A DNA stretch of 64,000 bases from Escherichia coli (GTDB taxonomy: Bacteria; Pseudomonadota; Gammaproteobacteria; Enterobacterales; Enterobacteriaceae), in the NCBI RefSeq assembly GCF_044647545.1, contig NZ_CP172818.1. One strand, written 5' to 3'. Of the stretch, positions 3,659 through 47,906 are shown piece by piece. Under the pieces are notes generated by a model. That model had not been told where the DNA came from, made no database searches, and saw nothing but the letters and a program-made list of their open reading frames with translations. How positions within the stretch are numbered: the stretch's first letter is position 1; every line of letters starts with the position of its first letter. The position numbers were made by a program, and so were the translations under genes.

Positions 3659-3870
3659 GACTCAATCATTTTTTGAACAAATAGATAATTTTTGCGCAAC
3701 GGCAGTGAATACAAGAAAAATCGTTTTGAGCGATTTTATTTATCTTTGATATCGGCTTTATTAATTCATTCAATCAATATATTAGCACTGATTACAATTA
3801 TACCTTTTTATTATTCTGTGTCATGATGCCTCCGTTATTAGCCTTTTATCGTCTTGTTTATATTTTTTGG

Positions 3871-3896
3871 GCCGGCATGATGCCGGCTTTTTTTTA
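3871..3896 (+). terminator. Orphan intrinsic-terminator-like hairpin (GCCGGCAT-GA-TGCCGGC plus T8)
   Basis: Perfect 7-bp GC stem followed by T-run on plus strand; no plus-strand gene upstream. Confidence 0.4.
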
Positions 3897-4054
3897 TGCC
3901 TTCATTAATGTGCGCGTGATCACACCAGCCGTTTAGCGCAACGATCATTGATACTCCCTATCTTTCAGTTCAACTCATAACTTATTGATATACATTTATA
4001 ATCTTCATGAATGTTTATATTCAGAATTCATAATCCTGAATTATATTAAATAGA

Positions 4055-4105
4055 TTAGAAACATTTTGAAATCTTTTAAATACATTTGTTACATGTAATC
4101 CTTAA
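4055..4105 (+). promoter_or_regulatory. OmpR-box-like repeats in porin promoter region
   Basis: gaaacattttgaaatc / tacatttgttacatgt resemble the ompC/ompF OmpR-binding TTTACATTTTGAAACAT motifs; about 100-150 bp upstream of porin start. Confidence 0.3.
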
Positions 4106-4206
4106 AATAAAATGAACTTCATAGAATAGTATCCAAATGTGCTTTTTTTTGGATAACGGCACTTATTGATATATTCATGAAGATTATAATCACAAGGGAA
4201 TACATA

Positions 4207-5322
4207 ATGAAAAGAAAAGTTCTGGCAATGCTGGTCCCGGCGTTATTAGTTGCTGGCGCAGCAAATGCGGCTGAAATTTATAATAAAGATGGCAATAAAG
4301 TTGATTTCTACGGCAAGATGGTTGGCGAACGCATCTGGTCAAATACTGATGATAATAACAGCGAAAACGAAGATACCTCCTATGCTCGTTTCGGTGTTAA
4401 AGGTGAAACCCAAATCACCAGCGAACTGACTGGTTTTGGTCAGTTTGAATACAACCTCGACGCCAGCAAGCCCGAAGGTGAAAACCAGGAAAAAACCCGT
4501 TTAACCTTCGCCGGTTTGAAATATAACGAGTTAGGATCATTTGACTATGGCCGTAACTACGGTGTTGCTTATGATGCCGCAGCTTATACCGATATGTTAG
4601 TTGAATGGGGTGGCGATTCCTGGGCTTCCGCTGACAACTTCATGAATGGTCGTACCAACGGTGTTGCAACCTACCGTAACTATGATTTCTTTGGCCTGGT
4701 TGATGGTCTTGATTTTGCGATTCAGTACCAAGGCAAAAACAGCAACCGTAGCACTAAGAAACAAAATGGTGACGGCTATGCGTTGTCTGTAGACTATAAC
4801 ATCAATGGTTTTGGTATCGTTGGTGCATATAGCAAATCTGATCGCACCAACGATCAAGTTGCCGATGGAAACGGTTCAAATGCTGAACTGTGGTCATTGG
4901 CTGCAAAGTATGACGCGAACAATGTCTACGCAGCTGTAATGTACGGCGAAACTCGTAATATGACTCCGGGTTCTATTGATACAGGTGTTGCCGATCGAGA
5001 AGGCAATACAATAATGCGTGATCAACTTATCAATGAAACCCAGAACTTTGAAGCGGTTGTTCAGTATCAATTCGACTTTGGTCTGCGTCCGTCCTTAGGT
5101 TATGTGTACTCTAAAGGTAAAGATATCAAAGGGGTACCTGGACATAGATATGTTGACGCTGACCGTGTGAACTACATTGAAGTTGGTACCTGGTACTACT
5201 TTAATAAGAACATGAACGTTTATACTGCATACAAATTCAACATGCTGGATAAAGATGACGCCGCCATTACTGGCGCAGCAGCTGATGACCAGTTTGCAGT
5301 TGGTATCGTCTACCAGTTCTAA
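4207..5322 (+). CDS. yedS: OmpC-family general porin (intact here)
   Basis: ORF with signal peptide [31 protein letters not shown] start of mature porin, C-terminal ...VGIVYQF; track ORF starts 30 nt upstream. Confidence 0.8.
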
Positions 5323-44873: not shown

Positions 44874-45246
44874 ATGAAAACATTACCCGTATTACCCGGG
44901 CAGGCGGCGTTCTCGCCCGTCTCCTGTTACCATCTGGCAGATACTGCTCACCCGATTACTGGACCAGCACTACAGCCTTACGCTGAATGACACACCGTTC
45001 GCCGATGAACGCGTGATTGAGCAGCATATTGAGGCAGGCATTTCACTGTGTGATGCAGTGAACTTTCTCGTGGAAAAATACGTACTGGTACAACTGACCA
45101 GCCGGGATTCAGCGCCGGAACCCGTCTCAGTTAATCAACAGCATTGATATCCTCCGGGCTCGCCGGGCAACCGGTCTGATGACCCGCAGCAACTACAGAA
45201 CGGTAAATAACATTACCCTGGGTAAGTATCCGGAGGCGAAAAATGA
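44874..45246 (+). pseudogene. cbtA: Type IV toxin CbtA (YeeV), frameshifted at least twice
   Basis: [12 protein letters not shown] then frame lost; second frame [54 protein letters not shown]; third frame DILRARRATGLMTR.NYRTVNNITLGKYPEAK runs into yeeW. Confidence 0.7.
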
Positions 45247-45439
45247 AATGACGCTGGAAGCCGACAGCGTTAACGTACAGGCGCTGGATATGGGGCACAT
45301 TGTCGTTGACGTCGATGGTGTTAATCTCACTGAACTGATTAATAAAGCCGCTGAAAACGGTTATTCACTCCGCGTGGTGGATGACCGTGACACTACCGAA
45401 ACACCGGCAACTTCTGCCAGCCCTCATCAGTTGCCGTAA
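45247..45439 (+). CDS. yeeW: Small prophage protein
   Basis: MTLEADSVNVQALDMGHIVVDVDGVNLTELINKAAENGYSLRVVDDRD...; in this sequence its frame is continuous with the last cbtA fragment. Confidence 0.6.
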
Positions 45440-45479
45440 GACAATACAGTGATACAGAGTATAATGCCATTAGCCACAG

Positions 45480-45492
45480 AAAAAAAAAAAAA
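45480..45492. repeat. A13 homopolymer
   Basis: 13 consecutive A downstream of yeeW. Confidence 0.9.
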
Positions 45493-45605
45493 CAGCACTG
45501 TTGTCCTGTATTAAACAGGCAAGAGAAGATATCCATACCCTGCGCCATCTGCAGCTTCTGCACCAGAACCGGTGAATCTCACTCAACAGACTTCATTTCC
45601 CCTGA

Positions 45606-45637
45606 CGCCAGCCTGAATACAGCTGGCGTTTTCATTT
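45606..45637 (+). terminator. Intrinsic-terminator-like hairpin
   Basis: CGCCAGC-ctgaataca-GCTGGCG followed by TTTTCATTT. Confidence 0.45.
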
Positions 45638-45733
45638 ATATACAGAAAGGAAAACCGATAATAATGGAATGGACGCCCCGACCATGAAGCAACGGTAGGA
45701 TATTACTGATAAACCTTCCAGTGGAGGTGCGTT

Positions 45734-45813
45734 ATGGCCGTTTTAACGATTAGCATTGACCTGACAAAAAATGAATTCCAAATCCACGGTCTGGGTAGGA
45801 ACAGAAAAATCTA
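45734..45813 (+). pseudogene. N-terminal remnant of an IS110-family-like transposase (26 codons then stop)
   Basis: MAVLTISIDLTKNEFQIHGLGRNRKI resembles the xGIDxxKxxFQ.HG start of IS110-family transposases. Confidence 0.35.
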
Positions 45814-45889
45814 AGCTCAGAAAACGGATTAAAGTAAGCGTCAACGGAGCACCATATTGACGCTTATTTATTGGTGAGAACTACGTTCC

Positions 45890-46246
45890 ATGGCAGGAGT
45901 TCGTCAACACGGTTGGAGGGCCATTCCGGCAGTATGCTCAGAATATGGCGCAGATACGCTTCCGGATCGATACCGTTCAGACGGCAGGTGCCTGCTTTTC
46001 CGGCAACAAGCAGGAATCTCAGCGCTGAAGCAGGAATTAGAGGTAAAAACGCCCTACCGGGCCATGAATCACCCGGTCATTGGAGTAGTAACCAAAGCAG
46101 ATTTAGCCAGCATGGAACAAATATCTTTGGTGAAATGTTGGTTACGGGAAGCTGGAGCGCACAACGTGTTAGTAACCAGTGCGGTTAATAACAATGGAGT
46201 TACAGAACTTTTTGCCTTGCTGCATACAGAAGAAGGCTGCCGCTAA
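45890..46246 (+). pseudogene. yoeF: EutP/PduV-family GTPase C-terminal fragment
   Basis: 118-aa ORF ending ...HPVIGVVTKADLASMEQISLVKCWLREAGAHNVLVTSAVNNNGVTELFALL; lacks N-terminal P-loop. Confidence 0.55.
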
Positions 46247-46346
46247 TTTCGATAGGTTCTCAGATGAGAATGATGACGGTGATACACAGATAAGAATCAA
46301 TGAGCAATGAGGGTTGCCGGGCAACCCTCATTGAATAAAACAGGAA

Positions 46347-46676
46347 TTACTTCGCTTCGCCGTTTTTCATTTCGCCCATAGCTTTCAGCTTTTTGGAGAT
46401 ATCGCGGCGTTCTTTGGAGAGCTCGGCATTTTTGATGATGTAATCGTCAACGCGATCTTCATAGTCACCTTTCATGCTGGCGATGATGCCCTGGATTGCT
46501 TCAACGCTCATCCCTGGCTTGATGTAATCGCTCAGGTTGTCCAGCAACAGGACGCGCTTCTGGTTGTCACGGATCTTTTTCTCAACGTCCTGAATTTCAC
46601 GTTGCAGTTTGTTCTTACGACGGAACAGACGAACAAATTCCAGTACGTCCTGGAATGAAGGCTTGGTAGTTTCCAT
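46347..46676 (-). CDS. yeeX: DUF496-family protein
   Basis: Internal start [42 protein letters not shown]... Confidence 0.8.
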
Positions 46677-46847
46677 TTTTATACCCCTGATAATGTGAGA
46701 GTCGGATTCGTTTAAGCAACCGCTATTCGATAGGGCCAACATTACTCATAGCTGCCGCAGATGACAATGCTTTTATCCCTTTTCACTATCATACCCTTTA
46801 TCCTTGCTGAATCGAAGCAGCAGCAAGATGATTCTGAAGTTCAGGAA

Positions 46848-47906
46848 TTATTTGCGCAAGGCCCGGCAAATCAGATTCGATAGCAACTCAAGCTGATGCG
46901 CCGTTTCCATGTTCAGCCACACATAACCATAGATTGGTGTTTCCACAACCTTCAGGTCATGGTGGTTATTAAGCAACAGACGCAGCTCTTCCACAGCATC
47001 GTTCAATTTTTCCGTATTGGCAAAAACCGGCTGCGGATTACCTTCGTACAGCGCATGAACAAGGCTCAGCAGTATTTGCTGCATCATGTGCTGGGTATCA
47101 CGAAGTTTTTGCGCGTTCAATAACACGAAATGGCTGGGGCGCGTGGCCCAGTATGCATTGATTTGCAACTCCAGCATACAAACCAGATTGCGGTTAATGG
47201 TCTGGATACCTTCATATATCGATTTTGGAATACGGGTTTCTTTGCTGGCGGGCGCAATCAGCCCACGCATTTTCACGGCATCGGTCAGCAGTTTTTGTAG
47301 ATGGCTTTCCAGACGTGGGCGTTCGAGTAAGTTCGGTGAGAATGCAGATTGATAGACCCGATTATACTCGGTCAGACTTTTCGCCAGTTGAATGCGCCAG
47401 TGGATGAACGCCCGTTGTGGCCAGATACCGGTAAACAACATTGCCAGTAAAGAGCCGAGGATCACATCGCCGCTTCGCCATAACGCCGTATCAATTTCAC
47501 CTGTCGGGGAACCCACAACAATTGCCAGCGTCACCCCAATCAATAATCCTTGATACGGTTTCTTGCCCAGCGCCAGCCAACCGCAAAGAAACATCGCCGC
47601 CGCGCACCAGACTAACATCAGCGGTAACGAAATTAACTCCAGTTGCAGAGCGATAAGACCTAAAATCGAACCCAACACCGTACCGCCAATACGTTCGAAG
47701 GCACGAGGGACAACGTTCCCCCAGAACGAGATTGGCCCCATAATCACCACCATGGTGACCAGCGGCCAGGTGCTTTCCGGGATAGTAAACAGGCGGATAA
47801 TGAGAAAAGTGAGCAGGAATGCCAGCGCGACCCGAGTACCATGCACAATGCGGTAATGGCGGTATACCCGGATTTCAAACGGGCTTAATGACTTATCGGC
47901 ACGCAC
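46848..47906 (-). CDS. yeeA: FUSC-like inner-membrane protein
   Basis: 352-aa polytopic ORF matching YeeA. Confidence 0.8.
   Translation of the reverse strand: MRADKSLSPFEIRVYRHYRIVHGTRVALAFLLTFLIIRLFTIPESTWPLVTMVVIMGPISFWGNVVPRAFERIGGTVLGSILGLIALQLELISLPLMLVWCAAAMFLCGWLALGKKPYQGLLIGVTLAIVVGSPTGEIDTALWRSGDVILGSLLAMLFTGIWPQRAFIHWRIQLAKSLTEYNRVYQSAFSPNLLERPRLESHLQKLLTDAVKMRGLIAPASKETRIPKSIYEGIQTINRNLVCMLELQINAYWATRPSHFVLLNAQKLRDTQHMMQQILLSLVHALYEGNPQPVFANTEKLNDAVEELRLLLNNHHDLKVVETPIYGYVWLNMETAHQLELLSNLICRALRK

Follow-up and report, generated by a model that had tools for sequence, protein, structure and literature searches.

Can the promoter region of the porin gene yedS be turned around in the genome of Escherichia coli? 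In the window (the whole stretch of 64,000 nucleotides that was analysed) the predicted yedS promoter is bracketed by two copies of a repeated sequence, of which one part recurs in the same direction and the other part in the opposite direction. The original prediction recognized in this arrangement the architecture of an invertible promoter switch, with duplicated operator sites as the alternative.

Repeat structure of the yedS upstream region

The locus and its repeats are made up of the following features:

3805 to 3894, plus strand: rseX small RNA gene (full-length Rfam RF01401 match with 99 bits, gathering score 50)
3869 to 3889, plus strand: stem of the intrinsic rseX terminator (terminator scan)
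3980 to 3992, plus strand: left (distal) copy of the direct repeat, ACTTATTGATATA, 13 nt (exact repeat search)
3996 to 4012, plus strand: left arm of the inverted repeat, TTATAATCTTCATGAAT, 17 nt (exact reverse complement of 4173-4189)
4013 to 4172, plus strand: segment between the arms, 160 nt, 22.5% G+C against 49% for the window (composition count)
4161 to 4173, plus strand: right (proximal) copy of the direct repeat, ACTTATTGATATA, 13 nt (exact repeat search)
4173 to 4189, plus strand: right arm of the inverted repeat, ATTCATGAAGATTATAA, 17 nt (exact reverse complement of 3996-4012)
4207 to 5322, plus strand: yedS, a porin gene of the OmpC/OmpF family, intact in the source strain (annotated as 'porin', WP_000824355.1)

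The query region of the window is 100% identical to E. coli strain FDAARGOS_497. Along the locus, the minus-strand genes yedA-vsr-dcm-yedJ-drpB precede rseX, yedS, hchA and hprSR, and rseX, the upstream neighbour of yedS, has the same orientation as this gene. In the Rfam search rseX was the sole match above threshold; STnc430 (24.5 bits) and RyhB (23.1 bits) were rejected as sub-threshold matches resting on the rseX terminator. The yedS protein scores under the NCBIfam cut-offs for OmpF, OmpC and PhoE and is therefore considered a distinct paralogue. YedS has reportedly been connected with carbapenems (work of Warner in AAC, 2013), and the porin is said to be linked to carbapenem susceptibility.

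Both repeats turn out to be one base longer than originally described (13 instead of 12 nt for the direct repeat at the yedS promoter, 17 instead of 16 for the exact inverted repeat). The AT-rich stretch of about 160 bp with OmpR-box-like motifs that was described between them is recovered as 160 nt of 22.5% G+C with ACATTTTGAAA inside, and the yedS start at 4207 agrees with the annotated coding sequence. The repeat is genuine in sequence and non-random in the source strain: an inverted repeat of at least 17 nt was found in none of 2000 Markov shuffles of 3660-4206 (where the maximum was 15) and in none of 300 dinucleotide shuffles of 3895-4206. A direct repeat of at least 13 nt, on the other hand, is produced by approximately 2.4% of the Markov shuffles of 3660-4206, and is thus marginal when taken alone. 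An 8-bp palindrome, TTCATGAA, is present in both arms, and a 10-bp palindrome, GATTATAATC (4182-4191), overlaps the right arm. The arms are thus partly self-symmetric, and consequently the 'inverted' match is in part also a direct match. No second close copy of the 17-mer arm sequence exists elsewhere in the 64-kb window, hence it does not represent a dispersed repeat.

Orientation of the segment between the arms

We constructed a synthetic query from 3916-4269 in which 4013-4172 was flipped, and searched it against complete E. coli genomes with a cut-off of at least 80% coverage. None of the 4,879 E. coli genomes carrying the locus reached this coverage, each assembly being a consensus in which a rare flipped subpopulation would escape notice. 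All 4,879 match the flipped construct as two flanks on one strand and the middle on the other, and the native sequence is colinear with the window in 4,878 genomes. A switch that reaches the majority in some cultures should appear among several thousand independent assemblies. The metagenome contigs were searched with a degenerate junction pattern, having an N at each polymorphic left-arm position; here the inverted junction was found in no contig, against 87 contigs found with the corresponding pattern for the native junction. The orientation of the segment is thus fixed throughout these collections.

The original prediction had already remarked that a recombinase gene is not adjacent. This is borne out by the neighbouring genes (yedJ, drpB, rseX, yedS, hchA and hprSR), among which there is no recombinase. 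The sole recombinase gene in the 64-kb window is the integrase of the HPI island (14092-15354), located about 10 kb from the segment.

Conservation of both copies across strains and species

The locus was aligned for nine E. coli lineages and then for representatives of six further Escherichia species together with Citrobacter and Salmonella, these additional loci being located via the neighbouring gene drpB. The left arm matches the right arm at 17 of 17 positions in the source window, at 16/17 in K-12-like strains, EDL933 and most E. coli, at 13/17 in ST131 (four mismatches) and at 10-15/17 in the other Escherichia species. Similarly, the direct repeat is complete in the window (13/13), reaches 12/13 in most E. 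coli (with ACATATTGATATA at the left copy) and is lower in the outgroups. Compared to shuffled sequences, the inverted repeat stands out in the window and also, as a 19-nt match with a single mismatch, in a K-12-like strain; in ST131, E. albertii and Escherichia sp. E1V33 it stays within what shuffles produce.

The two copies differ strongly in their constancy. The right copy is invariant in the nine E. coli lineages and nearly so in the six other Escherichia representatives, the only exception being E69 with two changed nucleotides, both in the direct repeat. Its inverted-repeat arm is identical in all Escherichia sampled; the right direct-repeat copy is invariant in eight of nine Escherichia lineages, is not kept outside the genus and is absent in Salmonella. 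Metagenome contigs give the same picture, with identical right copies in 69 of 73 contigs against 20 haplotypes of the left segment (direct plus inverted repeat) in 80 contigs. The surroundings of the copies differ as well: the yedS coding sequence and the region upstream of approximately 4038 are hypervariable, and the left copy falls in a fast-evolving stretch, whereas promoter and leader from about 4038 to past the start codon, including the right copy and most of the 160-nt segment, are extraordinarily conserved and almost invariant across Escherichia.

Exactness of the repeats belongs to the lineage of the source strain. Relative to the commonest E. coli allele, a T>C substitution at 4003 and an A>T substitution at 3982 make both repeats perfect; these substitutions are found separately in the population, and together in about 1-3% of strains. 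Among the 73 metagenome contigs that could be scored for both repeats, the inverted repeat is complete (17/17) in three, the direct repeat (13/13) in five, and both in two. An exact 55-nt match to the left copy of the window is found in 53 of 5,426 complete genomes. The perfect identity looks like an accident of two point substitutions, and the arms are not maintained as a matching pair. Given that the repeat was picked for its perfection, a similarity that falls with distance from the source strain is expected from ascertainment alone. Nonetheless, the 16/17 inverted repeat of most E. coli still beats shuffles, and 'pure accident' may thus understate some pressure towards similarity.

Promoter elements and regulatory context

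The conserved segment contains the following predicted elements:

about 4058 to 4099, plus strand: OmpR-box-like sequence, including ACATTTTGAAA (4061-4071) and GTTACATGTAAT (4088-4099)
4122 to 4127 and 4127 to 4132, plus strand: candidate -10 hexamers TAGAAT and TAGTAT (consensus and conservation)

From these elements we infer the approximate placement of the yedS promoter and transcription start. The 11-nt sequence ACATTTTGAAA recurs unchanged upstream of ompC in K-12, where we take it to be the core of the OmpR C1 box; ACATTTTGAAA and GTTACATGTAAT together presumably resemble the OmpR boxes of ompC and ompF. The upstream regions of yedS and ompC (a comparison proposed with the original prediction) show an overall similarity that is low and patchy. 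The predicted layout is comparable to that of the ompC and ompF promoters in that OmpR-like boxes abut a weak -35 element, with an IHF-consensus site located upstream at yedS; IHF sites at the ompC and ompF promoters were reportedly described by Huang, Tsui and Freundlich in the 1990s. Unlike ompC and ompF, yedS is silent in laboratory culture, and in K-12 and EDL933 the gene is a pseudogene.

A porin gene adjacent to drpB is present, based on synteny, in Escherichia, Citrobacter, Klebsiella and Salmonella, and the proximal promoter and leader blocks align across genera, including S. diarizonae. The Salmonella porin gene at this position is presumably ompS1. Judging from synteny and the literature, yedS is likely to be the orthologue of ompS1, and a conserved promoter is found at the orthologous locus, as for a quiescent porin of the ompS1 type. 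The resemblance concerns the genomic position (a porin gene divergent from drpB/yedJ/dcm), an AT-rich region that in E. coli is derepressed without H-NS/StpA, and OmpR-box-like sequence upstream of a weak -35 element. In contrast, Salmonella ompS1 is without the right direct-repeat copy; furthermore, its sites are said to have been defined (Oropeza 1999; Flores-Valdez 2003; De la Cruz 2007), whereas those of yedS are predicted from sequence. LeuO reportedly acts on ompS1 as well (Guadarrama 2014).

Published observations point indirectly to silencing by H-NS/StpA and its relief by LeuO, as do the G+C content of 22-28% and the H-NS-type motif of the E. coli region. In K-12 hns/stpA mutants the otherwise silent rseX 'and surrounding areas' are derepressed (PMC8313858). 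Salmonella ompS1 is quiescent, and LeuO antagonises or evicts H-NS there (PMC4264507; PMC7145609), while expression of ompS in S. Typhi is OmpR-dependent (PMC2704369).

The left copy contains a candidate IHF site

A consensus scan adds one feature to the left copy:

3978 to 3990, minus strand: IHF-consensus match TATCAATAAGTTA (consensus WATCAANNNNTTR), overlapping the left direct repeat

This is the one match to the IHF consensus in 3895-4206, with five matches in the whole 64 kb when both strands are counted. Read on the minus strand, the left copy consists of ATTCATGAAGATTATAA-ATGTA-TATCAATAAGTTA, i.e. an AT-rich stretch followed by a perfect consensus match, so that both features by which IHF sites are recognized (the WATCAANNNNTTR core and an AT-rich 5' flank) are present at the predicted site. 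In the alignment of Escherichia, Citrobacter and Salmonella the core TTGATA (ATCAA) and ATAA (TTA) are kept and the four N positions vary freely. Such an alternation of kept, four variable and again kept positions is what selection on a putative IHF site would leave. The left copy (3978-4012) is located approximately 120-155 nt upstream of the predicted transcription start, and its arm approximately 122-138 nt. The candidate sites for IHF, H-NS and OmpR rest on consensus matches, and such matches come cheap in DNA of 22-28% G+C.

The right copy is part of the predicted mRNA leader

Since the right copy lies 3' of the best-conserved promoter-like elements, it falls in the predicted 5' leader of the yedS mRNA. 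Its arm ends 4 nt ahead of the Shine-Dalgarno sequence AAGGGA (4194-4199). Just 5' of this arm a small hairpin is predicted at about 4140-4163, which recurs at the same place but with other stems in Citrobacter, Klebsiella and Raoultella (single-sequence folds with weak z-scores). RNAalifold returned no consensus structure for the leaders of 13 species, because indels misalign the small hairpin. The right copy has the core ATTCAY-N4-WTTAT, whose start precedes the ATG by 34 nt in 16 of 17 species; in Citrobacter NCU1 the distance is 36 nt. Such a fixed distance points to a constraint tied to translation initiation.

Besides, 9 of the 10 positions of TTGATATATT (4166-4175), located in the right direct repeat, agree with the high-affinity H-NS site of proV, a nucleation site with the sequence TCGATATATT (PMC2094087, Table 1). 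The H-NS-silenced proU/proV and bgl loci are alike in having AT-rich sites on either side of the promoter. The difference is that the high-affinity sites of proU are identical direct copies with measured affinity, whereas the yedS pair is inverted, degenerate in most strains and predicted from sequence.

Alternative explanations

In an invertible switch, site-specific inversion of 4013-4172 between the 17-bp arms would turn yedS on and off. The attraction of this reading is evident: the arms are perfect, improbable by chance and flank a predicted promoter, with the promoter-like consensus sites and OmpR-like boxes sitting between them, and phase variation is plausible for a porin. The arrangement also recalls fimS of E. 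coli and the capsule invertons of Bacteroides, where short inverted repeats likewise enclose a few hundred bp of promoter-bearing DNA ahead of a gene for a surface protein. Those systems differ from yedS, however, in that here the orientation of the segment is constant, the arms are not co-conserved and no dedicated recombinase lies alongside. In about 97-99% of strains the arms do not match perfectly, and conservation is limited to one arm; the nearest recombinase is the HPI integrase mentioned above, although one acting in trans is conceivable. Efficient RecA-dependent recombination needs arms longer than 17 bp. Among the top-ranked literature matches there is no paper that links yedS to inversion. 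Taken with the count of flipped copies (0 of 4,879 genomes, no metagenome contig against 87 native ones), this makes inversion extremely improbable, and we give hardly any credit to the variant in which the perfect arms of about 1% of strains mark a newly born inverton. These outcomes come down essentially to what the original prediction had named as speaking against a switch, namely no detectable inversion and repeats absent from the yedS promoters of related strains.

The repeats could also be thought of as the relic of a single event, either a MITE-like insertion with terminal inverted repeats or a template switch that copied the leader upstream. The arms indeed resemble terminal inverted repeats around a 194-bp unit, and the adjacency of direct and inverted repeats suggests one rearrangement. 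Yet there is one copy per genome and none other in the window, and relatives offer no empty site, since colinearity extends over the entire promoter from Escherichia to Klebsiella and Salmonella. Moreover, both direct repeats lie to the left of their arm instead of flanking the unit as target-site duplications would, and for these reasons a MITE or other small mobile element was rejected. The left direct-repeat core is kept across genera and the right one is Escherichia-specific, with the reverse pattern for the inverted repeat, and similarity climbs towards the source lineage rather than decaying from a perfect ancestor. Overall, a relic is very unlikely. Only slightly better are the prospects of a role at the RNA level, which we still regard as improbable. 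Here a plus-strand transcript containing the left arm, originating from rseX read-through or from a far-upstream start, would pair in cis or trans with leader sequence immediately ahead of the ribosome-binding site, altering translation or stability. The plus-strand left arm is complementary to the leader (-19.1 kcal/mol for the isolated 17-bp duplex), the common T allele yields a G-U wobble rather than a mismatch, the centroid structure of a hypothetical 3895-4230 RNA contains the long-range helix, and rseX, a small RNA that represses outer membrane proteins, is located directly upstream in the same orientation. Against this, the stretch from the strong rseX terminator to the left arm is devoid of predicted plus-strand promoters. 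The minimum free energy structure of the same hypothetical RNA is without the helix (overall z-score -1.4), and the helix probability is near 0 in the K-12-like and ST131 alleles (unscaled partition function). Covariation is not significant either, as the four double-sided changes are reached by 45 of 500 shuffles. The duplex energies of RseX and MicF with the leader are no better than those of shuffles; the RNAduplex z-scores (+0.2 to +1.0 for full-length RseX and K-12 MicF against the leader) are uninformative, however, since the method ignores intramolecular structure.

More weight should be given to the second reading of the original prediction, the duplicated operator sites. The conserved positions coincide in both arms and define the motif ATAAW-N4-RTGAAT in opposite orientations, with ATAA and TGAAT kept and the middle free. 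We scanned the 330-bp upstream regions of 17 species for this motif, allowing at most one mismatch. Exactly two matches are found in each of seven Escherichia species, at about -209 (plus strand) and -34 (minus strand) from the ATG, and about five of the other ten species (Citrobacter, Klebsiella and Salmonella) have a comparable upstream match at similar distance with at most one mismatch. The motif was defined post hoc from these same sequences, so the per-species P values (0.00-0.13 where at least two matches occur) are optimistic. Both arms differ in Citrobacter amalonaticus and Salmonella diarizonae, yet at the homologous places they are still complementary at 11-12 of 17 positions. This complementarity ranks 1st to 3rd among 261 windows, though direct-orientation matches of 10-12/17 are found at other places in these regions as well. 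For the arm pairs of 12 sequences the share of complementary cells is 80.9%; sliding the partner lowers it to 32-48%. Since a weak resemblance thus reaches Citrobacter and Salmonella, the copies may be related protein-binding sites.

In a true operator pair one regulator or nucleoid protein (bridging H-NS/StpA or a LeuO tetramer) would loop the intervening 170-180 bp and clamp the promoter. The two-match pattern and its recurrence outside Escherichia, the coinciding kept and free positions, the complementarity of the arm pairs, the 170 bp between the TTCATGAA centres and the silencing of the locus by H-NS/StpA in K-12 (PMC8313858) are all in line with such a pair. Nevertheless, apart from the post hoc nature of the motif, the left site is absent in 4 of 17 species and fast-evolving even within E. 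coli (four mismatches in ST131), and the fixed ATG distance of the right site suggests a constraint on the mRNA rather than the DNA. Known regulator consensuses do not fit the motif either: compared by eye with the arms, Fur, Zur, ArgR, FNR, MetR, the RcsAB box, TorR and the MarA box gave no convincing fit, and neither did OmpR half-sites with the motif. Of the duplicated operator sites there remains, as a lead, a degenerate motif at both positions in opposite orientations. We therefore regard the operator pair as possible, though rather doubtful. The same tentative standing applies to its wider form, a conserved inverted two-site operator with sites about 175 bp apart, at which a bridging or tetrameric protein would clamp the yedS/ompS1 promoter and alleles would set the degree of silencing.

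Proposed role of both copies

With exactness confined to about 1% of strains and no flipped copy found, the repeats are best regarded as ordinary AT-rich regulatory DNA and not as a switch. In our opinion the region probably serves the quiescent porin gene yedS as static cis-regulatory DNA, neither mobile nor invertible. According to this explanation the right copy (4161-4189) would be part of the invariant 5' leader, with the 5' hairpin on one side and the ribosome-binding site on the other. A constraint on the mRNA is probable, either through translation initiation or through access of small RNAs or Hfq, and the copy may in addition serve as a downstream site of the H-NS type. The left copy would on the minus strand form one complete IHF-like site, in which the WATCAANNNNTTR core comes after an AT-rich 5' half. 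The point substitutions at 4003 (T>C) and 3982 (A>T) account for the 17-nt and 13-nt perfection. The old weak resemblance would fit a situation where both copies contact an AT-rich nucleoprotein complex that controls this class of promoters. By analogy with the syntenic ompS1 of Salmonella, such a complex might involve silencing by H-NS/StpA, bending by IHF, anti-silencing by LeuO and activation by OmpR. The binding proteins, the exact transcription start and any cooperation between both sites are what we infer, whereas the fixed orientation, the constancy of the right copy next to a variable left copy and the lineage restriction of the exact repeats are directly shown by the sequence comparisons.

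For phase variation of a porin linked to carbapenem susceptibility, these results strike one false candidate from the list, and the locus matters little as a switch. The predicted IHF-consensus site and the conserved inverted motif pair offer concrete targets for dissecting the activation of a silent porin. More generally, where AT-rich regulatory DNA holds a perfect repeat that is statistically striking, this repeat can represent the peak of a resemblance that is imperfect and drifting. If the operator pair were true, alleles of the left site would tune how tightly yedS is silenced across E. coli lineages, and with a two-site operator the 20 or more natural upstream alleles would set lineage- or host-specific silencing of the porin. 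The yedR-yedS intergenic region is already in use as a polymorphic marker of host source (PMC11267920).

Variation in YedS and conservation of its expression signals

Across E. coli, and across Escherichia as a whole, the YedS porin is hypervariable: the other alleles are 53-70% identical to the product encoded at 4207-5322 in the window (comparison against L002-L006 and L009-L015 of our sequence set). In the same comparison the yedS leader, the proximal promoter (from ~4038) and the first ~100-130 nt of the coding sequence are conserved. This looks as if a surface protein were undergoing allelic replacement or diversifying selection while the expression signal beside it stays frozen.

One structural element is predicted in the conserved leader:

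~4140-4163: small hairpin GUGC...GCAC, where the predicted yedS leader begins

A leader hairpin is found at the equivalent position in other genera (L016, L017 and L020-L025), with differing stems (GUAC/GUAC in Citrobacter, GUCA/UGAC in Klebsiella and UUGC/GCAA in Raoultella). The energies are modest (z from -0.4 to -3.8), and the predicted structure is similar to the 5' stem-loops that stabilise other omp mRNAs. Further downstream, the start of the coding sequence, AAAGAAAAGTTCTGGC (4211-4226), is invariant. It resembles the complement of what we take to be the 5' seed of the RybB sRNA (GCCACUGCUUUUCUUU), with 9 + 4 matching bases; several porin mRNAs are known targets of RybB.

Upstream region

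Two further features, both on the minus strand, are listed here with the plus-strand small RNA gene rseX:

3805-3894, plus strand: rseX, directly 5' of yedS and sharing its orientation
3824-3797, minus strand: predicted near-consensus sigma-70 promoter (ATGACA-16-TATAAT, 11/12), within the 5' end of rseX and directed at drpB
3978-3990, minus strand: perfect match to the IHF consensus, TATCAATAAGTTA, overlapping the left direct repeat (3980-3992)

Since the minus-strand sigma-70-like promoter is located inside the 5' end of rseX, the promoters of rseX and the neighbouring drpB appear, on sequence grounds, to overlap back to back. The IHF-consensus match follows a conserved, variable (4 positions), conserved pattern in Escherichia, Citrobacter and Salmonella. 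By eye, two GATC (Dam) sites are seen just upstream of the left repeat copy, at 3919-3922 and 3944-3947, the latter of which is lost in most other lineages (AATC instead). This inspection gave no hint of a switch that depends on Dam.

Loss of yedS

In K-12 and EDL933 yedS is a frameshifted pseudogene. In addition, an IS1-like end (GGTAGTGACTCCAACTTACT) interrupts the right inverted-repeat arm (4173-4189), just 5' of the ribosome-binding site, in one of the 80 metagenome contigs (L030-L109), and one complete genome (H25, NZ_AP021895.1) carries an IS1A element inside the matched region. Insertion therefore provides a further way of knocking out yedS.

Elsewhere in the window, positions 13855-44377 hold the yersiniabactin High-Pathogenicity Island, which runs from ybtS to fyuA and has a tRNA-Asn gene as its insertion site. 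Its tyrosine integrase (14092-15354) is the sole recombinase gene within the window. The island is followed by a truncated inverse-autotransporter / Ig-like pseudogene at 45028-47835.
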